Below, piece by piece: positions 1,128 to 13,469 of a DNA stretch of 64,000 nucleotides. The notes beneath the pieces are model-generated. The model was not told the origin of the DNA and made no database searches. It saw only the letters and a program-made list of their open reading frames with translations. Positions within the stretch are counted from its first letter, which is position 1; each line of letters starts with the position of its first letter. The stretch lies in the IMG/VR virus record IMGVR_UViG_3300024303_000011. One strand, 5' to 3'. Origin of the DNA: a virus (Duplodnaviria; Heunggongvirae; Uroviricota; Caudoviricetes). The translations under genes and the position numbers were made by a program.

Positions 1128-1156
1128 TTGACAGACACAATCGCTTATGATATAAT
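1128..1156 (+). promoter_or_regulatory. sigma70-like promoter P1 (TTGACA-N17-TATAAT) driving tRNA/hairpin-RNA/Ro60 array
   Basis: Perfect consensus hexamers with 17-nt spacer; ACAGAATGATTC motif 20 nt downstream (1176-1187). Confidence 0.65.
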
Positions 1157-1196
1157 ATATACACGATGAACACGACAGAATGATTCATCGTGATAC

Positions 1197-1323
1197 GGGA
1201 CGGTAGCTCAGCGGACAGAGCAACGTAAACATCAACCAATGCGGTTTGACAAAATCGTATGCAGCAATTTTAATGATAAGCCTTATAAGCCGTAGGTCGC
1301 AAGTTCGAATCTTGCTCGTCCCA
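1197..1323 (+). tRNA. tRNA gene with 54-nt insertion in anticodon stem (between nt 29/30); mature anticodon UAU (Ile-like) if insert removed
   Basis: Acceptor GGGACGG/TCGTCCC, D-arm GCTC-AGCGGACA-GAGC, T-arm GCAAG-TTCGAAT-CTTGC, variable AGGTC. 5' exon ends ..AACG(1225), 3' resumes GC-CTTATAA-GCCGT at 1280 giving stem ACGGC/GCCGT. Insert 1226-1279 contains GCAGCAATTTTAA. Confidence 0.5.
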
Positions 1324-1331
1324 ACTAATAT

Positions 1332-1449
1332 GCACGGATAGCTCAGTCGGTAGAGCACAGTAATAACAGGGTTTAGCCATAAGCCCTAACAGCAACTTTA
1401 CAAATGCTTGAGGAGCCTGGTGTCGCTGGTTCAAGTCCAGCTCCGTGCA
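1332..1449 (+). tRNA. tRNA gene with 45-nt insertion between nt 29/30; mature anticodon loop TTGAGGA (anticodon GAG, class I body) if insert removed
   Basis: Acceptor GCACGGA/TCCGTGC, D-arm GCTC-AGTCGGTA-GAGC, T-arm GCTGG-TTCAAGT-CCAGC. 5' exon ..ACAG(1360), 3' resumes GC(1406)-TTGAGGA-GCCTG. Insert 1361-1405 contains AACAGCAACTTTAC. Confidence 0.45.
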
Positions 1450-1456
1450 ACAATAC

Positions 1457-1575
1457 AGGGAGATAGTCAAGTGGTAAGACAATAGACGTCAATAAATAGT
1501 CTTGCTAAAGAGTATTCAGCAATCATAGACAACCAATTCTATGTATCGGTGGTTCGAATCCATCTCTCCCTGCCA
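1457..1575 (+). tRNA. tRNA gene with ~44-nt insertion in anticodon loop (stem ATAGA/TCTAT intact); anticodon not resolvable; CCA encoded
   Basis: Acceptor AGGGAGA/TCTCCCT perfect, D-arm GTC-AAGTGGTAA-GAC, T-arm GGTGG-TTCGAAT-CCATC. Loop plus insert 1487-1537 contains TTCAGCAATCAT; ATAGAC direct repeat at both insert ends. Confidence 0.45.
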
Positions 1576-1926: not shown

Positions 1927-3465
1927 ATGGCATTTATGGATTCAATCAAAAATGAACTCAACAACGAGAAGCGGATCACCGAGAACGGTGCTGTGGGTTA
2001 TCGTACCACAGGTAAGGGTCTGCTGGATCTCAACTTTAGCGTGGCTTCACTGAGAAACGCATCGGAAGCAGATATCATCGATAAGTTCATTCATGCTTAT
2101 TTCGAAGATAAGCTCACTGCCACTAAGTGGCTGTTCTATGCAAGAGACGCAAGAGAGGGCCTTGGTGAACGTAGACTGTTCCGAGTTGTTATGGAAGAGT
2201 TTGCGGTACAGCAGCCTGAGATCGTCAAAGAACTGATTAAGTTTGTGCCCGAATATGGTCGCTGGGACGATCTGTGGTGCATGCTTGATACAGACATGCA
2301 GACCGATATTGTTGATATGGTTCAGAAACAGCTTCTTATTGATCTTAATAATATGAAGTTGAACAAGTCGGTTTCTCTTCTTGGAAAGTGGATGCCTAGT
2401 GAAAATGCATCTTCTGCCGAGACGAAGGCACGAGCAACACTCATCAGAAACAAGCTTGACATGACATCCAAGTATTATCGTAAGATGCTATCTAAGTTGC
2501 GCAAGTACATTGACGTCGTCGAGTGCAAGATGTCTGCTAAGCAGTGGAGTGAAATCGATTACGAGGCAGTTCCCAGTAGAGCTAACCTGATTTACAATAA
2601 CGCTTTCCTTCGTAATGATGAAGAGCGTCGCAGAGAATATCTTGGCAAGCTTGAAAAGGGCGAAGCTAAGATTAACGCCGGAGTTCTGTTCCCTCATGAC
2701 ATTGTTCACAAATATGGTCGTTCTTATGGTGTAGATGCGGCTCTTGAAGGCATGTGGAAAGCACTGCCGGATACTGTAAAGGGTTGCGGTAATACAATCG
2801 TTGTGGCTGATGGATCTGGCAGTATGCAGGTTCGAGTAGGCAATACTGATGTATCTGCTCTTGAAGTTGCTAATTCTCTTGCAATTTACTTTGCAGAGCA
2901 TTCTTCCGGTGAGTTTAAGAATAAGTATATTACGTTCAGTGAAAGGCCTCAGCTGGTTGACTTTAGCAAGGCAAAGAACCTTCGTGAGAAGCTTAATATT
3001 GCACGTCAGCATAACGAGGTAGCTAATACCAACATTGAAGCGGTGTTCGATCTGATCCTGTCTACGGCTATCAATAACCATATGCATCAGGAAGATATTC
3101 CCGTAAATATTCTGATCATCTCAGATATGGAATTTGATGGCTGTGCAACTACCAATACGGTTAGACGCAGTGGTTGGTATGCTTCATATGAGCGTCCCAC
3201 CGCAACTCTTTTTGAAACAATTGAGAAGAAGTATAGAGCTGCTGGATATAAGATCCCGCGTCTCGTGTTCTGGAACGTAAATTCTAGAACTGGCACCATT
3301 CCTGTTAAGGAAAATGATCTTGGCGTAGCTCTTGTCAGTGGCTTCTCCGTCAACATTGCTAAGATGGTTATGTCTGGAAAGACTGATCCTTACGAGTGTT
3401 TGCTTGAGGCTCTGAATGTAGAGCGGTATCAGCCTATCGAGGATGCCATTAAAGACATTTGTTAA
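1927..3465 (+). CDS. rsr: Ro60/Rsr-like RNA-binding protein (TROVE domain + C-terminal vWA domain)
   Basis: GGAGGAA RBS then ATG 1927. C-terminal vWA MIDAS VVADGSGSM and ILIISDMEFDG resemble Ro60 LLAVDVSASM and FIVFTDNETF. N-terminal region Ro60-like (ENGAVGYRTTG...ARDAREGLGERRLF). Length 512 aa. Confidence 0.55.
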   Translation: MAFMDSIKNELNNEKRITENGAVGYRTTGKGLLDLNFSVASLRNASEADIIDKFIHAYFEDKLTATKWLFYARDAREGLGERRLFRVVMEEFAVQQPEIVKELIKFVPEYGRWDDLWCMLDTDMQTDIVDMVQKQLLIDLNNMKLNKSVSLLGKWMPSENASSAETKARATLIRNKLDMTSKYYRKMLSKLRKYIDVVECKMSAKQWSEIDYEAVPSRANLIYNNAFLRNDEERRREYLGKLEKGEAKINAGVLFPHDIVHKYGRSYGVDAALEGMWKALPDTVKGCGNTIVVADGSGSMQVRVGNTDVSALEVANSLAIYFAEHSSGEFKNKYITFSERPQLVDFSKAKNLREKLNIARQHNEVANTNIEAVFDLILSTAINNHMHQEDIPVNILIISDMEFDGCATTNTVRRSGWYASYERPTATLFETIEKKYRAAGYKIPRLVFWNVNSRTGTIPVKENDLGVALVSGFSVNIAKMVMSGKTDPYECLLEALNVERYQPIEDAIKDIC

Positions 3466-3492: not shown

Positions 3493-3521
3493 TTGACAAG
3501 AGTTTAACAATGTGATATAAT
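3493..3521 (+). promoter_or_regulatory. sigma70-like promoter P2 (TTGACA-N17-TATAAT) with downstream ACAGAATGATTG (3531-3542)
   Basis: Consensus hexamers; same cassette architecture as P3. Confidence 0.6.
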
Positions 3522-4025
3522 AATCACACAACAGAATGATTGAGTAGTGAGTACAGATCCATATCGAGTATGCCACAACGTACAAACTCAAGTAGGTATC
3601 GCCGTAATGCGTCTTATGTACAAAGACATCTTGAGAGTGGCAGAGATTAGCCCAACGATGTTGTAAGCAGGTAGCATAGGCGACATTTGGAGTCGTCGGA
3701 GCCGTTCGAATCGGATGAGGGTGACCACAAAGAAAATCTCTTAAAAGTACGAGATATGAAAAAGCAAGGTAAACATTAATGAACAGCCTGGTCAGCATAT
3801 GAGGATATTAATGATTAATTAATAATGAATTGACCGTTGGAAGTGGGTGCACACACGAATCCAACCCTTGCTCCTGTGGGTGAAAGTCCTACAGCTCAAT
3901 CTAATATGCCAGTTACGGCTTTGAGTGGGTTCGAGTCCCACCGCTGGTGACAAGCGGCGTATACAGCCGCAAGTTTAGTACTAAGTGTTATGGCTGTTGA
4001 ATTAGCTACTCGACGGCTATAATAT

Positions 4026-4298: not shown

Positions 4299-4431
4299 GC
4301 GGGATTGGTGGAATGGCAGACACCGGGGACTTGTTCGAGAGCCAGAGCGAAGTGAGGTCATCACTCACCTTGAGCACCAAAAATCCCCTGGTAGCAATAC
4401 CGTATCGGTTCGAGTCCGATATCCCGCACCA
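4299..4431 (+). tRNA. class II tRNA (long variable arm) with ~47-54 nt insertion in anticodon loop; anticodon UAA (Leu) or UGA (Ser) depending on junction; CCA encoded
   Basis: Acceptor GCGGGAT/ATCCCGC, anticodon stem GGGGA/TCCCC separated by 54 nt, variable hairpin GGTA-GCAA-TACC, T-arm ATCGG-TTCGAGT-CCGAT. Confidence 0.5.
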
Positions 4432-4433
4432 AA

Positions 4434-4552
4434 TAGTCACCAACAGCAACTAAATTGTCTTCGTCATAATTGAAGATGTAGCTTAGAGGTTAGAGCATCA
4501 GCCGTGAAAAGCTGAAGACGCTGGTTCGAATCCAGTCTTTAAACGGTGACTA
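4434..4552 (+). ncRNA. tRNA-like ncRNA element E: terminal stem TAGTCACC/GGTGACTA, bulge with AACAGCAACTAAATTG, D-arm, 8-nt anticodon-like loop (TCAGC-CGTGAAAA-GCTGA), T-arm GCTGG-TTCGAAT-CCAGT
   Basis: Does not fold as canonical tRNA (acceptor cannot pair) but retains D/T arms; Y-RNA (YrlA)-like layout. Confidence 0.4.
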
Positions 4553-4663: not shown

Positions 4664-5122
4664 ATGGCACATTCAGGATACTCTGACGATTTTTGTATAG
4701 TATGTGGTAAGAGATTATCAAGAGGTCATTTATCACAATATTGTCAAATTCATTACAATGAACAAAGAAGAAAAGAAAAAATTGAAAAATGGCTAGAAAG
4801 CGGAGACACGGGAACGTCGGTAGACACAACAATTCGTGGTGTTATTAGGGATTATATATTAGAACAACAAAACAAATGTTGTGCAATATGTGGCATTAAA
4901 AATGAATGGAATGGAATGCAACTGAATTTTGTTCTTGATCATATTAATGGAGACGCATCTGAATCATCAAGAGACAATTTGCGTTTAATATGCCCAAACT
5001 GCGATAGTCAATTAGATACATATAAATCAAAAAATAAAAATTCTTCACGAACTAAAAGAAAAGAATTCTTAAAAAACTTAAATACATACTCAAAAAACAA
5101 AAACAATGGGGAGTTAGCCTAA
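4664..5122 (+). CDS. HNH homing-type endonuclease (Zn-ribbon + HNH)
   Basis: CIVCGK..C, VLDHINGD...NLRLICPNCD HNH motif; 3' end overlaps tRNA-Ser by 15 nt. Confidence 0.6.
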   Translation: MAHSGYSDDFCIVCGKRLSRGHLSQYCQIHYNEQRRKEKIEKWLESGDTGTSVDTTIRGVIRDYILEQQNKCCAICGIKNEWNGMQLNFVLDHINGDASESSRDNLRLICPNCDSQLDTYKSKNKNSSRTKRKEFLKNLNTYSKNKNNGELA

Positions 5123-6587: not shown

Positions 6588-7634
6588 ATGAGCAAGTTTG
6601 TAGCAGCCCTTTTGGCTATGGTTATTCTGGTTACTGGCGGACTGATTATTTATGGCGCAACTCATGAGACGATTCCTGCTGGCTACGTTGGTTATGTTTA
6701 TGACCGTAACGCACGAGACGACGATAATGTGATTCCCGGAACATCCGTAATTAACGAAGCAAGAACAGGTCGAATTTCAATTAACCCAATCACTCAGGAT
6801 GTACTTACCTATCCCACTACTATTATTAGCTGCAACTGGACTGGTCTTGCAGAAGGTGATAACAAGAAGGATATGAGCATGCAGATTGCATCTCAGGAAG
6901 GCAAGAACATCGATGCTGATATTTATATTAGCGTAAGACCTCTCGACATCGAGAAAATCATTAAGTCTTTCGGTACAAAGTCCTTCGATTCCATTGTTGA
7001 TAACGATATCTATGGTCTTACTAAGGGTAAACTCTCTTCCGTGTCTCAGGCATATTCCGTTTATGATATCCAGTCTTCTAGAGTAGAGATCCAGTCTGAG
7101 GTATTTAACATCCTTTCCAGCACTCTAAACGACGTATATGGTGTTGAACTTGTCCGCCTTGAGATTGGTACTCTTATTCTCCCTGAAGATATCCAGGCTA
7201 AGATTGACCAGAAGACTCAGGCACAGAATGAGGTTGAACTCGCTAAGCTTGAGCGCGAGCGTCAGAATGAAGTGAATCAGCAGATCGTCGATCAGCAGAA
7301 GGCACAGTCTGAGCGTGAGATGATTCAGCGCCAGGCAGAAGCAGACGCGGCTGCATATGAAAAGCAGAAAGAAGCAGAAGCTCTTCTGGCAGTCTCCGAG
7401 GCAAATGTAAAGATCGCAGAGCAGGAGCTTGAGATCGCAAAGCTTGAGAAAGAAGCAGAACTCGAAAAGCAGAAGGGTTACACCACGGAGTACTTTAAGG
7501 ATAAGGAACTTGACGTAAAGATGGCTGCAGTAGAAGCAATCAACCCGACCGTGAAGACTATTATTACATCCGGTGAAGGAGAGGGCTTCGGTGCGCTCGT
7601 TGGTATCAAAGAAGTTCTTAATAGTATCGGCTAA
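6588..7634 (+). CDS. SPFH/band-7 (stomatin/prohibitin/flotillin-like) membrane protein with C-terminal coiled coil
   Basis: N-terminal TM, SPFH-like core, Glu/Lys/Gln-rich coiled coil (ELAKLERERQNE...). Confidence 0.55.
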   Translation: MSKFVAALLAMVILVTGGLIIYGATHETIPAGYVGYVYDRNARDDDNVIPGTSVINEARTGRISINPITQDVLTYPTTIISCNWTGLAEGDNKKDMSMQIASQEGKNIDADIYISVRPLDIEKIIKSFGTKSFDSIVDNDIYGLTKGKLSSVSQAYSVYDIQSSRVEIQSEVFNILSSTLNDVYGVELVRLEIGTLILPEDIQAKIDQKTQAQNEVELAKLERERQNEVNQQIVDQQKAQSEREMIQRQAEADAAAYEKQKEAEALLAVSEANVKIAEQELEIAKLEKEAELEKQKGYTTEYFKDKELDVKMAAVEAINPTVKTIITSGEGEGFGALVGIKEVLNSIG

Positions 7635-7755: not shown

Positions 7756-8805
7756 ATGATTGAAAGGTTTAAACGAATGACAATCAGTGAAATAAAATCC
7801 ATGTTAAAAACACCGGAATATGGATTCCTAAAAACGAATGAGCATCTTGGGCCTAATGTTATTTTACTAACGCTTGGTGGCAGCTACGCATATGGAACAA
7901 ATGTTGAAACATCAGATGTTGATATTCGTGGTTGCGCTTTGAACTCAAAAGAGGAAATTTTGACGAATAAAAATTTCGAACAGTTTGTCAATGAAGAAAC
8001 AGATACAACGATCTATAGCTTTAATAAGCTTATCAGTCTGCTTTCTAACGTAAACCCAAATACTATTGAACTGCTTGGATGTAAGCCCGAACATTATGTA
8101 TATCTTTCTCCAGTAGGTAAAGAGCTGCTGGAACATAAACATCTGTTTTTGTCTAAAAAGTGTGTACATTCTTTTGGCGGATATGCGAACGCACAGCTCA
8201 GACGTCTAGACAACAAAGCAGCGAGACTTGTTACGCAGACAGAACAAGAACATCATATTTTAAAAAGTATCGAAAATGCCTCATATACCTTCAAAGAGCA
8301 TTACTTCAAATATGACGATGAGGCCATCAAGCTATATATCGATAAATCAGAGTCTGAAGAATATGATACTGAAATCTTTATGGATGTAAATCTTAAGCAT
8401 TATCCTTTGCGGGACTACAAAGGAATGTGGTCTGTAATGCACAATGTTGTTAAAGAATACGGCAAGATCGGAAAGCGCAATTCTCATGCAATAGAGCATG
8501 GCAAACTTGGTAAGCACATGATGCATTTGGTCAGGCTGTATCTAATGTGTCTTGATATTCTTAACGATGGCGAAATTATTACATACAGAGAAAAAGATCA
8601 CGACTTCCTTATGAGTATTCGCAATGGTAAATATCTAGATGACAACAGACAGCCAACGCCTGAGTTCTTTGATATTGTTGATGACTTGGAGGCTAAGCTG
8701 GATGCGGCAAAACATAGTACGGATCTACCAGATAATCCTGATTATAAAAAGATCAATGAGTTCGTTGCTTCTGTGAATGAAAGAATTGTTAGAGGTGAAG
8801 TATAA
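7756..8805 (+). CDS. Pol-beta superfamily nucleotidyltransferase (GS...DxD), function unknown
   Basis: LTLGGSYAYGTNVETSDVDIRG NTase signature. ATG 7756 lies inside the conserved promoter-proximal motif, so true start may be ATG 7777 (MTISEIKS). Confidence 0.5.
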   Translation: MIERFKRMTISEIKSMLKTPEYGFLKTNEHLGPNVILLTLGGSYAYGTNVETSDVDIRGCALNSKEEILTNKNFEQFVNEETDTTIYSFNKLISLLSNVNPNTIELLGCKPEHYVYLSPVGKELLEHKHLFLSKKCVHSFGGYANAQLRRLDNKAARLVTQTEQEHHILKSIENASYTFKEHYFKYDDEAIKLYIDKSESEEYDTEIFMDVNLKHYPLRDYKGMWSVMHNVVKEYGKIGKRNSHAIEHGKLGKHMMHLVRLYLMCLDILNDGEIITYREKDHDFLMSIRNGKYLDDNRQPTPEFFDIVDDLEAKLDAAKHSTDLPDNPDYKKINEFVASVNERIVRGEV

Positions 8806-9192: not shown

Positions 9193-9741
9193 ATGAAAAC
9201 TTTAATTGTAATTGACATGCAGAATGACTTTATCACAGGTTCTCTTGGAACCAAAGAAGCACAGGCTATTGTACCTAACGTAAAAAAGAAGATCGATGAG
9301 TATCTGGAGCGTGGCGACGAAGTTATTTTTACCAGAGACACCCACGATGAGGACTACCTAAATACCAACGAAGGAAAGCATCTTCCTGTTAAGCATTGCA
9401 TCTTTGGCACCGAGGGTTGGGAGATCCACCACGATCTTGATGTTAAGGATTGCGAACATATTGACAAACATACTTTTGGTTGGCAGTTCTGGACTTCTAC
9501 TGAGTCTGCTTACGAAAATGACGAGGATGATACGTATTACTTCCGAGATCTTGAAGACATTGAGATCGTCGGTCTGTGTACGGATATCTGCGTGGTATCC
9601 AACGCGTTGATCCTTAAAGCAAATTATCCTTGGGCAAATATTACTGTGGACGCAAGCTGTTGCGCTAGTGTAACTCCTGAGAAGCACAAGGCAGCACTTG
9701 AGGTTATGAAGAGCTGTCAGATCAATGTAATCGGAGAGTAA
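9193..9741 (+). CDS. pncA: nicotinamidase (isochorismatase family)
   Basis: VIDMQNDF N-terminal motif, GLCTDICV catalytic Cys context. Confidence 0.65.
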   Translation: MKTLIVIDMQNDFITGSLGTKEAQAIVPNVKKKIDEYLERGDEVIFTRDTHDEDYLNTNEGKHLPVKHCIFGTEGWEIHHDLDVKDCEHIDKHTFGWQFWTSTESAYENDEDDTYYFRDLEDIEIVGLCTDICVVSNALILKANYPWANITVDASCCASVTPEKHKAALEVMKSCQINVIGE

Positions 9742-9743
9742 TA

Positions 9744-10274
9744 ATGAATACTTTTCAGAAGTTTATTGGCCATGCGCGAACCGTGCATAAGCATCGTGCA
9801 ATGGTGCGAAAACTATGTTTCAAATGCGGCCTCTATTGGCAGGGATTGACGCACGATCTCTCTAAGTATCATCCCGTTGAATTCTGGAATGGAGTCAAAT
9901 ACTACACTGGAACAGCATCTCCGCATCACGGGGAACGTAAAGACAAAGGATACTCAGATGCGTGGGTTCATCATCATAACAGAAACAAACACCATGTAGA
10001 GTATTGGCAGGATATTAATCCTAACACTGGTGTAAGTGTGCCTATCGAGATGCCTGAGAAGTATCTAAAAGAGATGATCTGTGATCGTGTAGCAGCTTCT
10101 ATGACATATCTAGGTGATAAATACTATAGTGCTGCACCTCTTGAATATTATGAAAGTCATAAGTACGAAAATAGATGGCATCATATGACACAAGAAAAGG
10201 TTGAGTATTATCTCGATAAAATTGCAAGACACGGATTTGAAAAAATTATGAGAGACATAGACCAAATGATATGA
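9744..10274 (+). CDS. His-rich hypothetical protein (possible metal-binding)
   Basis: HHGERKD...HHHNRNKHH cluster; no recognisable family. Confidence 0.3.
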   Translation: MNTFQKFIGHARTVHKHRAMVRKLCFKCGLYWQGLTHDLSKYHPVEFWNGVKYYTGTASPHHGERKDKGYSDAWVHHHNRNKHHVEYWQDINPNTGVSVPIEMPEKYLKEMICDRVAASMTYLGDKYYSAAPLEYYESHKYENRWHHMTQEKVEYYLDKIARHGFEKIMRDIDQMI

Positions 10275-10493
10275 CACTCATTGATATACTTTACTACATG
10301 GCTTATGCTACATTTGCCATAATTGGTATTGGCGTATTTATAGAATACTTAAAAAATATTTAAGGGAAATAATTAATTATGGAAACAATTATACTTGCTT
10401 ATATTGGACTTATGGGCGTTCTTGGTCTTGGCTTTATCCTTTTCGGTATTGTAGCAATCAAAGAATTGAATAAATGAAAGGAAATAATTGATT

Positions 10494-11717
10494 ATGATGA
10501 AACTGTCTCCCATTATTACCCATCTTACTGATACTGACCTGTATAAGTTCACTATGCTCCAGACCATGTTCCATCGTCATACTAATCTTAATGGCACTTA
10601 TATCTTCAAATGCCGCAATAATGACGTGAAGTTTACCGCAGAAATGGTGGAAGAAATCAATGCGCAGATTGACCACCTTTGCACTCTTCGTTTTACCGAT
10701 GAAGAACTTGACTATCTCGCGTCTCTGCGTTTCATCAAGCCTGACTTCGTTGAGTTCCTTCGCATCTGGCATCCTCTTCGTAGATATGTAGAAGCTTATA
10801 TGTCTGATTATGATGTTCATGGAACTAATCCAGAAGGAACACTCAATATCAAGGTAGAGGGCCCTCTCTTCAATACTATGATGTTTGAAATCTATCTCCT
10901 TGCTATTGTCAACGAAGTATATTTCCGTATGGAGTATAACTATCTTGACCTCGTTGATAGTGCGAGAAAGGAGCTTTACAGCAAACTTGTAGGATTTGTA
11001 CCTCCTGACCCTCTTTATACTTTCAACTTTGCGGAATTCGGCACCAGAAGACGCCTTAGCCGAGAGTGGCAGGATTATGTAATGACTGAGCTTCTCAAAA
11101 CCAAGCACTGTGTTGGCACTTCTAATGTCTATCTCGCTATGAAATATGGTATCAAGGCAATCGGCACCTACGCTCACGAATATGTTCAGATGTTCCAGGG
11201 CGTCCCCGGCATTCAGCTTGCATATACTAACAAGGCAGCTCTTGAAGAGTGGTTTGAAGAATACCAGGGTGACCTGGGAACCGCATTGACTGATACTCTT
11301 GGAACTGACCTGTTCCTGCGGGACTTCAACAAGCTTCAGGCGACTTGCTATACTGGTGTTCGCCATGACTCTGGTGACCCCTACGAGTGGGGCGAGAAGA
11401 TTATTGAACACTACCTAAAGCTTGGTATTGATCCTAAAACCAAGACCCTTCTGTTTAGCGATAGCCTTGATTTTGAAAAAGCTCAGGCGATCTACGATCA
11501 CTTTAATGGCCGCATTAATGTAAGCTTTGGTATTGGCACTTATCTCACTAACGATACTAATGTAGATCCTCTGAATATCGTCATTAAACTTCAGTATGTA
11601 AATGGTCATCCAGTAGCAAAACTGAGCGATGTTCCCGGTAAGACGATGTGTCAGGACGAGAACTATGCAGACTATTTGAAGCAGGCGGTTGATTATAGAC
11701 TGCGGGAAGGTATTTAA
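10494..11717 (+). CDS. pncB: nicotinate phosphoribosyltransferase
   Basis: N-terminal LTDTDLYKFTMLQ matches PncB LLDTDAYKLHMQQ; length ~408 aa. Track start 10488 is TTG; ATG 10494 preferred. Confidence 0.6.
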   Translation: MMKLSPIITHLTDTDLYKFTMLQTMFHRHTNLNGTYIFKCRNNDVKFTAEMVEEINAQIDHLCTLRFTDEELDYLASLRFIKPDFVEFLRIWHPLRRYVEAYMSDYDVHGTNPEGTLNIKVEGPLFNTMMFEIYLLAIVNEVYFRMEYNYLDLVDSARKELYSKLVGFVPPDPLYTFNFAEFGTRRRLSREWQDYVMTELLKTKHCVGTSNVYLAMKYGIKAIGTYAHEYVQMFQGVPGIQLAYTNKAALEEWFEEYQGDLGTALTDTLGTDLFLRDFNKLQATCYTGVRHDSGDPYEWGEKIIEHYLKLGIDPKTKTLLFSDSLDFEKAQAIYDHFNGRINVSFGIGTYLTNDTNVDPLNIVIKLQYVNGHPVAKLSDVPGKTMCQDENYADYLKQAVDYRLREGI

Positions 11718-11719
11718 TA

Positions 11720-11953
11720 ATGTGCATTGAAACAGTTGGTGAATTAAAACAAATGCTTAAAGAGCTTAACCTTGCGGATGATGCTCCAATTATTATGACA
11801 AGAGAATCATTAAGAGAGGCTCCCTATAGTGTTCCCGTGCGCCCGCTTTACATTTATACTGGCGTTATTGATTCAAAATATAATCAGTATGAACGACGAC
11901 TTGAAGCTTGTTATTCTGCTGATGGAAAATATGGATTGATGGTACTTGGATAA
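11720..11953 (+). CDS. hypothetical protein
   Basis: ORF with tight coupling to pncB stop. Confidence 0.3.
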   Translation: MCIETVGELKQMLKELNLADDAPIIMTRESLREAPYSVPVRPLYIYTGVIDSKYNQYERRLEACYSADGKYGLMVLG

Positions 11954-12120
11954 TGAATAAATGGATAAATAAGTTTCTTTGGTGGTTTCTTCATATTACT
12001 AAAAGAAATTGTAGGCATTGTTCTGTCTTTGATGAAGAAACTAACAAATGTAAAATATTTAATTGTTGTTTTCGCCCAGATGATGATTTTTGTATGCGTT
12101 GGATAAAGAAGGAGTAAAAA

Positions 12121-12687
12121 ATGACAGGTGTAATTCTATTTCGCGCCCAGCCTTTTCATAACGGCCACCTAGCGCAGATTAAACGTGCTTATAAAGATAT
12201 GCGGAAACTTGGTGGCGATTTGTATGTTCTAGTCGGTAGCGCCGATAAATTTGGCACTAAACGCAACCCTATTCCAATTGATATACGGCTTGATTTAATT
12301 AAAAGTAGTCTCAATGAAGTACTCAATTCAGATCAATTGAAACATATTGAGATAGTCCCTCTTAATGACCTTAGCGATGAAGCCAATAATACACATTCTT
12401 GGGGCGAATATCTTTATAGCAAAATGTGTGAATATACTGGCGATACTGATTTTGTCTTCTATTACAGTGACAAACCCGAAATCGCATTGAGTTGGTTCGG
12501 TGACAATGAACGAGAGCATATTTATTTCAAATTTCTTCCAAGAGTAGATAATGTGAATGCTACCGAAGTAAGAGGACTCCTTTATACTTGTGTTCTTGGC
12601 GATGCTATGAAATTGGAGCTCCTGCTTCCTAATTATGTTTATGGCAAAATTACTACACTTCATGATTATATTGTAAATGCGAGGTAA
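12121..12687 (+). CDS. NMN/NaMN adenylyltransferase-like nucleotidyltransferase (HxGH family)
   Basis: AQPFHNGH (H/TxGH) and C-terminal NATEVRG (ISSTxxR-like) motifs; AAGGAG RBS. Confidence 0.55.
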   Translation: MTGVILFRAQPFHNGHLAQIKRAYKDMRKLGGDLYVLVGSADKFGTKRNPIPIDIRLDLIKSSLNEVLNSDQLKHIEIVPLNDLSDEANNTHSWGEYLYSKMCEYTGDTDFVFYYSDKPEIALSWFGDNEREHIYFKFLPRVDNVNATEVRGLLYTCVLGDAMKLELLLPNYVYGKITTLHDYIVNAR

Positions 12688-12692
12688 AGAAA

Positions 12693-13469
12693 ATGTTTGA
12701 TGCAGTAAAAGCAAAAAATGATTGTGTGCAGTGGATACGCGATTGGTTTGAAGAGAATGGCAAAGATTGTAATGCGGTTATTGGCATCTCTGGTGGTAAG
12801 GATTCCACTGTTGTGGCTGCTTTGTGTGTTGAGGCACTTGGCAGGGATAGAGTTATTGGAGTATTGATGCCTAATGATATTCAAAATGATATAGCAGATG
12901 CTTTTAAGGTAGTTGAGCATCTTGATATTAAACACGCAGTGGTTGATATAAATAAAGCATATAAAGCTATTTTGAATAGTGTATTTTATTGTTCGCCTCG
13001 TGGAAATATGGGAAGACATATTATTCCTACAAATCAGGCGATAACCAATCTTCCTCCACGTATTCGTATGACTGTACTCTATGCAATGTCTCAGTCGTTG
13101 AACGGTCGTGTAGCTAATACATGCAACCTTTCTGAGGATTACGTAGGTTATAGCACCCGTTGGGGAGATTCCGTTGGAGACTTTAGCCCCCTTGCTAATC
13201 TTACCACGGATGAGGTAGTTGCTATTGGCGACGCTTGTGGGTTGCCCTATGAACTCACTCACAAAACTCCATCTGATGGCCTTTGTGGCAAAACAGATGA
13301 AAATAATCTTGGATTCACTTATGAAATACTAAATAAATATATCCTAACCGGCATATGTGAAAATGAAGCAGTAAAAGAAAAGATTGATAATCTACATAAC
13401 AAAAACTTGTTTAAACTTCAGCCTATACCTAGTTTTGTACCGATTGGTGTGCGCGGTTATGATGTTTAA
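12693..13469 (+). CDS. nadE: NH3-dependent NAD+ synthetase
   Basis: PP-loop GISGGKDSTV; length 258 aa. Confidence 0.65.
   Translation: MFDAVKAKNDCVQWIRDWFEENGKDCNAVIGISGGKDSTVVAALCVEALGRDRVIGVLMPNDIQNDIADAFKVVEHLDIKHAVVDINKAYKAILNSVFYCSPRGNMGRHIIPTNQAITNLPPRIRMTVLYAMSQSLNGRVANTCNLSEDYVGYSTRWGDSVGDFSPLANLTTDEVVAIGDACGLPYELTHKTPSDGLCGKTDENNLGFTYEILNKYILTGICENEAVKEKIDNLHNKNLFKLQPIPSFVPIGVRGYDV

Follow-up and report, generated by a model that had tools for sequence, protein, structure and literature searches.

A conserved RNA handle in the anticodon arm of three phage tRNA genes, upstream of a gene for a protein with a Ro60-like predicted fold

Positions 1197-1575 of a 64,000-nt stretch of DNA from a tailed bacterial virus (IMG/VR record IMGVR_UViG_3300024303_000011; the whole stretch is referred to below as the window) hold three consecutive tRNA genes, each interrupted in the anticodon arm by an insert of 45-54 nt. 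The insert is a conserved structured module, here called the handle, and the same module forms free-standing RNAs that neighbor the tRNA genes. The three tRNA genes and four of the five free-standing RNAs precede a gene for a DUF2828 protein and share its strand; the predicted structure of this protein gave Ro60 as its best match in a fold comparison. On balance, it is probable that the three genes encode unspliced, Y-RNA-like partners of this Ro-like protein, with a real tRNA as the effector domain, acting as tethers or decoys.

All three genes are on the plus strand and have open, 7-bp acceptor stems. The first (1197-1323; class A) was identified by ARAGORN in intron mode and by an explicit parse of its arms, with the Rfam tRNA model giving only a partial, 14-bit match. 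Its insert (1226-1279) contains a hairpin (1239-1260) followed by GCAGCAA (1261-1267), and the parse reads ACG, 54 nt, then GC-CTTATAA-GCCGT, such that taking the insert out on paper leaves the loop CTTATAA and the anticodon UAU. The second gene (1332-1449; class B body) matches the Rfam tRNA model end to end at 48.5 bits. It carries its insert at 1361-1405, with a hairpin at 1368-1387 and ACAGCAA at 1389-1395; here the parse reads CAG, 45 nt, then GC-TTGAGGA-GCCTG, and removal on paper yields the loop TTGAGGA. As read off the sequences, relatives of this gene possess an 8-nt loop (L139) or a 9-nt loop (L014) at the same position, the former having no canonical parse (L followed by a number denotes a locus of a related phage). 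The third gene (1457-1575; class C) is Trp-like, with A1-U72, G73 and an encoded CCA, the last being absent from genes 1 and 2, and it matches the Rfam model at 50.7 bits over 1457-1572. Its anticodon stem (ATAGA 1492-1496 / TCTAT 1548-1552) encloses a 51-nt loop (1497-1547) that includes TCAGCAA (1516-1522). The sole local hairpin has an 8-nt loop lacking U33, and no removal of a single segment gives a canonical arm. Orthologues in L013 and L016 carry ACGGA-CTCCAAA-TCTGT (Trp CCA) after the handle.

The Rfam alignments skip 56 bases (1332-1449) and 50 bases (1457-1572) in the anticodon arm. Minimum-free-energy folds of genes 1 and 2 contain the acceptor, D and T arms together with a strong insert hairpin, and that of gene 3 retains an acceptor stem, a T arm and the stem-loop that follows the insert, with the D arm and insert hairpin not formed. 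The first-pass annotation of this DNA had described three complete tRNA frames interrupted in the anticodon arm, two of them exactly between nt 29 and 30, an intact stem with an ATAGAC direct repeat at both boundaries of the insertion in the third, and a CAGCAA motif shared by every insert and by the adjacent hairpin RNAs. The frames and their insertions of 54, 45 and 51 nt are confirmed by ARAGORN, Rfam and the parse; the parse places the inserts of genes 1 and 2 at 29/30, and the remaining features are present in the sequence. CAGCAA starts at 1262, 1390 and 1517 in the inserts, at 1590, 1663, 1760 and 1844 in four hairpin RNAs, and also at 4444. In its default mode, ARAGORN reported nine ordinary tRNAs in the window and none at 1197-1575; with introns allowed, it placed tRNA frames at 1197-1323, 1331-1451, 1457-1575 and 4299-4431. 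The intron positions and anticodons that it assigned (Ile-gat, Val-tac, SeC-tca) clash with the stems, and the explicit parse was used instead. Annotators should be aware that default tRNA finders miss these genes and that intron-mode finders give arbitrary "intron" positions and anticodons.

For comparison, 75 further phage contigs were found through the DUF2828-type protein, and interrupted genes were drawn from about 90 related phage loci. A scan of viral contigs with a 16-nt DNA pattern was too unspecific, giving 120 mostly chance loci, 5 of them useful. The handle consists of a 7-9 bp hairpin, a spacer of 1-3 nt and then AC(A/T)GCAA-N-TTTA, in an inserted length of 45-55 nt. In all 59 unique inserts from related phages, comprising 41 distinct helices, the hairpin ends 0-4 nt ahead of C(A/T)GCAA. 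Fifty-six of 103 unique segments have an identical geometry (7 bp, a 4-nt loop that is mostly GNNA, and a 3-nt spacer), and the number of pairs across handle segments is bimodal, at 6-7 or at most 4. Alignment of whole genes with MAFFT and RNAalifold recovered the tRNA arms and missed the insert hairpin; because this alignment left the insert hairpins out of register, covariation was assessed on the 56 fixed-geometry segments, which were chosen for having at least 5 of the 7 pairs. Within this set, each of the seven pairs has cells in which both partners changed (129 cells vs. 36 in shuffles), and the covariation score is 0.93, relative to 0.25 for shuffled segments and 0.08-0.15 after sliding of the partners. 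Nearly invariant are the G3-C16 pair and ACWGCAA-N-TTTA. Comparison of inserts across related phages, a check put forward in the first-pass annotation, has revealed compensatory changes in the insert hairpin. The acceptor, D, T and anticodon-stem pairs of the interrupted genes also covary and stay intact. At permissive Rfam thresholds (E up to 10), the inserts and hairpin RNAs matched no intron, ribozyme or Y-RNA family. Among other identities considered for the handle, a terminator was discounted for the lack of a T run, a bulge-helix-bulge was set aside with a helix of 7-11 bp instead of 4, and the scar of a mobile repeat is contradicted by the covariation.

The handle has two topologies, being closed in the inserts and open in the free-standing RNAs. 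In the folds of five such RNAs, all on the plus strand, a helix of 8-11 bp joins the RNA ends and ACAGCAA directly follows the 5' strand. The first (1579-1644; terminal helix TAAGGCACT/GGTGCCTTG) has orthologues in L013-L018. The second (1653-1741; helix AAGACGCA/TGCGTCTT) surrounds a degenerate tRNA-like cargo with the T arm GTGGGTTCAAATCCCAC and a weak Rfam tRNA match (1666-1734; 20.3 bits), and is followed by a third (1750-1815; helix GAGAGACC/GGTCTCTC). In the fourth (1832-1892; helix TTAAGACACG/CGTGTCTTGG), the cargo is an anticodon-arm mimic, ATAGA-CTTTTAA-TCTAT (Lys-like), the loop of which is CTGCTAA or CTTGTAA in other phages. Finally, the fifth (4434-4552; helix TAGTCACC/GGTGACTA) surrounds a complete tRNA-like cloverleaf (4472-4541; Rfam tRNA match of 46.8 bits) and has orthologues in L013, L016, L017 and L018. 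Whether it is a T arm, a mimic of the anticodon arm or an entire cloverleaf, the cargo enclosed by the open handle is tRNA-derived. Two further variants were seen in other phages: a Tyr-like, class-II handle RNA has the ochre-suppressor-like anticodon TTA in one phage and GTA in a relative (L014 4012-4140 vs. L017 4023-4151), and a class-A RNA (L156 1954-2072) has the 8-nt loop CTTTTTAA.

The association of the handle with the partner gene is specific for both strand and position. The related loci yielded 134 unique interrupted tRNA-like genes with the motif. In the 1.5 kb upstream of the partner gene, the density of ACAGCAA is 3.17 per kb for the coding strand vs. 0.04 per kb for the other strand; over the partner gene and downstream of it, the density is 0.06-0.15 per kb. 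These 134 cases and this strand bias go well beyond what chance would give. Handle-bearing tRNAs number 155 upstream of the partner gene vs. 2 downstream, and 67 of the 75 loci have one to four upstream; ordinary tRNAs in the same 75 loci are split 123 vs. 122. In the window, the RNAs of the array precede the DUF2828 gene by 35-730 nt and share its strand, each phage has 4-8 partner RNAs with cargo of any size between an anticodon arm alone and a complete tRNA, and the operon order is kept across phages in which the partner protein is only 50-85% identical.

The association extends from phages of gut Clostridia to cultured phages. In bins of metagenome-assembled genomes, the hosts indicated for the window's phage group are Lachnospiraceae and other Clostridia. 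Homologues of the partner protein with 33-40% identity occur in 702 cultured-phage records, and this spread of DUF2828/PHROG 850 includes relatives of Felix O1, P100, KVP40 and Tsamsa. The same handle is found beside the homologous gene in Bacillus phage Tsamsa, Enterococcus phage VRE9_4, Mycobacterium phage Lumos, E. coli phage wV8 and Listeria phage LP-083-2. In LP-083-2, genes for an HD hydrolase and an RtcB-like ligase lie near the partner gene, downstream of it. A separate observation in this phage is a match to ROOL RNA (L223 462-1013; 87 bits, E = 1e-16, slightly short of the family threshold), which is followed some 650 nt downstream by three handle RNAs and the DUF2828 gene.

The partner gene of the window (1927-3465, plus strand) encodes a protein with Pfam matches to DUF2828, DUF7788 and, weakly, VWA_2, and belongs to PHROG 850, annotated as "RNA-binding protein". 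Its predicted structure has the overall fold of Ro60, namely a helical-repeat domain followed by a vWA domain with a MIDAS motif. Genes for Ro60 carry Y RNAs adjacent to them on the same strand, and tRNA-like Y RNAs are known in bacteria and phages (PMC4201824, PMC12135203), for example Yrl1/2 of Thermus phage phiLo (PMC12135203). The present locus resembles the YrlA family (RF02553) in several ways: several small RNAs per locus sit beside a same-strand gene for a ring-plus-vWA RNA-binding protein (although the likeness to Ro60 here is at the level of fold only), a helix with a short, conserved, single-stranded motif forms the presumed protein site, the second domain mimics tRNA through its T and D arms (the Rfam tRNA matches of 48.5 and 50.7 bits in the window), and RNA-repair genes are neighbors. 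There are also clear differences. The motif is AC(A/U)GCAA-N-UUUA here vs. GNCGAA(N0-1)G in the terminal stem of YrlA, and the partner is DUF2828 rather than Pfam TROVE. The tRNAs of the window keep their acceptor ends free, and their anticodon loop is in most cases canonical, whereas the acceptor of YrlA is closed by a loop and has no free CCA end. Moreover, the handle is a closed hairpin in the anticodon stem of the three tRNAs and a terminal stem only in their free-standing neighbors.

Permuted RNAs of related phages stand closer to YrlA. In L008, L227, Lumos and wV8, the handle is open and the order is T arm, closed acceptor, D arm, which is the YrlA layout of Chen et al. (PMC4201824); a closed acceptor stem was found in the permuted relatives L008, L227, L221 and L222. 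The L008 permuted RNA keeps the 29/30 arrangement and the anticodon hairpin, and has nothing to splice out. Against the Rfam YrlA model, the Lumos RNA scores 39.3 bits (E = 1.5e-5), under the gathering threshold of 69 bits. The same model gave matches of 24.6 bits (1276-1379) and 19.2 bits (1397-1511) in the window; these were rejected because each spans two adjacent genes, where a tRNA's 3' half followed by its neighbor's 5' half mimics the permuted order. In the literature on DUF2828, Ro-like phage RNAs and phage tRNA insertions, no description of the module or of handle-bearing tRNAs was found. Ro60 with adjacent, tRNA-like Y RNAs was already known, and what appears to be new is the DUF2828 branch, the ACWGCAA handle, and tRNAs with a handle in the anticodon arm.

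The operon is preceded by a sigma-70-type promoter (1128-1156, plus strand; TTGACA-17-TATAAT with a TG extension, 12/12 consensus match). No terminator-like site was called between this promoter and the start of the DUF2828 gene, the sole called site (2119-2131) lying inside the gene. A leader hairpin read from the sequence (1162-1192, plus strand; CACGATGAA...TTCATCGTG, with the loop motif ACAGAATGATT) is common to L013, L017 and L018, and its motif recurs after other promoters: ACA(A/G)AATGATT is found at 1175, 3531, 7751 and 15791 of the window, as well as in L013-L018 and L139, 12-20 nt 3' of sigma-70-like -10 boxes, and may be a shared leader or regulatory element. Directly upstream, on the plus strand, is a gene (103-978) for a polynucleotide kinase (AAA_33) plus HD-domain protein, assigned with Pfam and NCBIfam; judged from its sequence, it is a candidate RNA end-healing enzyme, and it occupies the same position in L013. 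Downstream plus-strand neighbors, identified with Pfam, include a Band-7/SPFH protein (6588-7634), which also adjoins the homologous gene in L016-L018 and Lumos, and an RlaP RNA-repair-type nucleotidyltransferase (7756-8805). An HNH endonuclease open reading frame (ORF; 4664-5122) sits inside the cluster of tRNAs and handle RNAs. A second perfect sigma-70 promoter (3493-3521) is followed by about 420 nt of non-coding sequence (3530-3950), which shares 66-77% identity with L013, L018 and L139, ends in a T arm and closed stem (3925-3956) and matches no Rfam family; it is probably another structured RNA of the locus. After the RNA-repair-type genes, the region 9193-13469 holds an NAD-salvage block of isochorismatase-family, NAPRTase, cytidylyltransferase-like and NAD synthase genes and, further on, an NAD-dependent DNA ligase.

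The gene at 4299-4431 (plus strand; ARAGORN intron mode and folds) had been counted in the first-pass annotation as a fourth case of the same kind. It does contain a real insertion, but one outside the handle family: CAGCAA is absent, and a different element is nested in what is a class-II, tRNA-Leu(UAA)-like gene. This element (about 4333-4380) comprises a stem of 7-8 bp, a hairpin and ACCA, follows C32-U33-U34 in the anticodon loop, and is kept with compensatory changes in 8 loci. Relatives (L018 7768-7928, L013 7739-7890, L180 4627-4780 and L001 98-251) have a whole tRNA-like cloverleaf ending in NCCA at the same place. In principle, RNase P and 3' processing could release a nested element of this type, leaving ligatable halves.

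Whether the handle is an intron or a permanent domain was approached with a permissive parse of 132 unique sequences, allowing the removal of any single segment. A canonical anticodon arm could be obtained for 95 of these, including 1197-1323 and 1332-1449, and not for the other 37, including 1457-1575; for 77, taking out one segment within the stem restores a flawless stem of 5 bp and a loop of 7 nt. An encoded CCA is present in 11 of 69 interrupted genes vs. 189 of 215 ordinary tRNAs of the same loci, and the discriminator N73 of the GTT class, which is the commonest, is G in 8, A in 5, C in 10 and T in 4 cases. Interrupted genes place GCT and TGA (serine) anticodons on class-I bodies, which bacterial seryl-tRNA synthetase is not known to accept. 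Near-identical bodies also bear differing anticodons, such as TAT in the window, TTT in L013 and GCT in L139, and likewise GTT vs. TCT and TGA vs. TGT. Between close pairs, which are not independent and serve only for description, positions 34 and 35 differ in 12-13%, the body in 6.6%, and positions 33, 37 and 38 in 0%. No insert-free close relative of an interrupted tRNA was present among 265 ordinary tRNAs in related loci, and an interrupted tRNA may share its anticodon with an ordinary tRNA of the same phage (Trp in the window, Pro in both L013 and L017, and Lys in L018).

An unlikely alternative to a permanent domain is that the inserts are protein-dependent introns of a new kind, with the handle recognized by the DUF2828 protein or another factor, both junctions cut by an endonuclease, and the exons rejoined by a phage or host kinase-HD protein, RlaP, RNA ligase or RtcB to give working tRNAs, perhaps conditionally. 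Predicted junctions for gene 1 are GGACAGAGCAACG/GCCTTATAAGCCGTAGG if spliced and AGAGCAACG/TAAACATCAACC if unspliced, and for gene 2 GGTAGAGCACAG/GCTTGAGGAGCCTGGTG and TTAATGATAA/GCCTTATAAG, respectively. Such splicing would suit the 77 perfectly restored arms with their invariant U33, A37 and A38, the stereotyped junctions (CG/TA... at the 5' side, G at the 3' side), the highly canonical tRNA bodies of about 50 bits, and the kinase-HD and RlaP genes next door, to which the Listeria homologue adds RtcB and an HD hydrolase. A permanent three-way junction, however, accounts equally well for the preserved anticodon arm, and splicing is difficult to reconcile with the 37 sequences beyond repair by a single excision and the class-B loops of 7, 8 or 9 nt, the free-standing and permuted RNAs that hold the same module with nothing to splice out, the rarity of encoded CCA, the unconstrained discriminators and serine anticodons on class-I bodies, and the redundant ordinary tRNAs without any insert-free alleles. 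Furthermore, RNA ligase, RtcB and EndA-type splicing endonuclease were all absent from the 30 window ORFs scanned (64 kb of a genome of about 170 kb). As a general reading, the intron considered in the first-pass annotation is not supported: the insert is the same covarying module that forms the neighboring RNAs and co-occurs, across distant phages, with a gene for a protein of Ro60-like fold. Class-A members such as 1197-1323 might nonetheless be spliced. Archaeal tRNA introns occur at varied positions of the anticodon arm, including 29/30. Like them, the present inserts add tens of nucleotides to the anticodon arm, have permuted versions, and in class A can be removed to restore the arm. Non-canonical introns and split or permuted tRNA genes of archaea depend on a bulge-helix-bulge motif cut by splicing endonuclease (PMC4090602), in a 3-4-3 arrangement, whereas here a hairpin of 7-9 bp is joined to a sequence motif, many members cannot be restored by excision, and the setting is a bacterial virus that has sigma-70 promoters and probably infects Clostridia. 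Group I introns of bacterial and phage tRNAs, which likewise split the gene in the anticodon arm or loop (PMC3984707), measure at least 200 nt as opposed to 45-54 nt, and the inserts have neither a P1-P9 core nor an Rfam Intron_gpI match. The earlier statement that the inserts are neither group I introns nor another described bacterial type is therefore upheld.

The first-pass annotation had also offered ribozyme-containing precursors and decoy pseudo-tRNAs as alternatives, of which the latter is nearest to the reading favored here. It is very improbable that the handle is a small, self-cleaving ribozyme or RNase-processing signal, analogous to the ribozymes beside phage tRNAs, that cuts the transcript into units and the tRNAs into halves. 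The compact core of about 10 invariant nucleotides beside a helix, the repetition of the module between the units of one transcript, and nearby genes for healing enzymes that act on 5'-OH and cyclic-phosphate ends would be in keeping with cleavage. Nevertheless, no Rfam ribozyme family matches, the conserved nucleotides are confined to one strand, excision at both ends is impossible for one ribozyme, and the strict pairing, in phages distant from each other, with a single protein family of Ro60-like fold would be expected of a protein-binding site. It is scarcely credible that these are dead tRNA genes hit by a small mobile repeat and that the module is functionless. The module is certainly present many times, and short direct repeats border some inserts (ATAGAC in 1457-1575 and CGGA in L017), yet the hairpin is maintained by compensatory changes, the tRNA-arm pairs covary and remain intact, and the module keeps to one strand and position within a conserved operon order.

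Under the favored reading of an unspliced partner for a Ro-like protein, the interrupted genes would encode tRNA/Y-RNA chimeras, in which a handle of 45-55 nt is grafted into the anticodon arm of a complete tRNA frame. The DUF2828 protein would bind the handle as Ro60 binds the stem of Y RNA, and the RNAs would act without being spliced. The tRNA body, chiefly its exposed and fast-changing anticodon loop, would then be the effector end, a decoy or tether for enzymes that act on tRNA; the likeliest of these are anticodon nucleases of the host, or the enzymes for RNA end healing and repair that the phage itself encodes next door. T4 Pnkp and Rnl1 repair PrrC-cut tRNA-Lys, and phage tRNAs with altered anticodon loops serve as nuclease counter-measures. 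Those systems resemble the present locus in being tRNA-centered, in their kinase and phosphoesterase healing enzymes, and in the fast change of the anticodon loop; they are not known to include a handle-bearing tRNA or a Ro-like protein, and a link to nucleases here is suggested by analogy.

Several points weigh against this account. The pairing of protein and handle rests on their co-occurrence, and the decoy or tether role toward anticodon nucleases is conjectural. The structural model of the DUF2828 protein is moderate (pLDDT 64), and neither Pfam nor sequence and profile searches of the PDB (E of at least 0.8) gave a link to TROVE/Ro60. Class-A genes with the insert removed on paper have a flawless 5-bp stem and 7-nt loop, with U33, A37 and A38 invariant, just as a working tRNA produced by splicing would require, and the end-healing enzymes next door, like RtcB near the Listeria homologue, would also fit cutting and rejoining. 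In addition, the acceptor ends are free, unlike those of YrlA, so that processing by RNase P and RNase Z and CCA addition are possible. A more speculative proposal, which is possible but well short of probable, is that the RNAs form a programmable display library, in which the Ro-like protein holds whole tRNAs or anticodon arms alone by the handle and offers their fast-evolving anticodon loops to host nucleases as decoys or traps, or else that the handle is a signal for a new, protein-dependent splicing or activation of tRNA. If true, either the display library or the splicing pathway would be a new mechanism in the conflict between phage and host over tRNAs, and would also provide the first defined job for the tRNA mimicry of bacterial-type Y RNAs.

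Taken as a whole, the locus would represent a second, very widespread branch of the Ro60/Y-RNA system with an RNA motif of its own. That the tRNA frames are real, the loops canonical and the anticodons prone to flip indicates mimicry aimed at enzymes that read the anticodon loop. Handle RNAs also occur in phages of E. coli, Listeria, Bacillus and Mycobacterium that can be cultured, which makes work on binding, processing and knockouts feasible at once.

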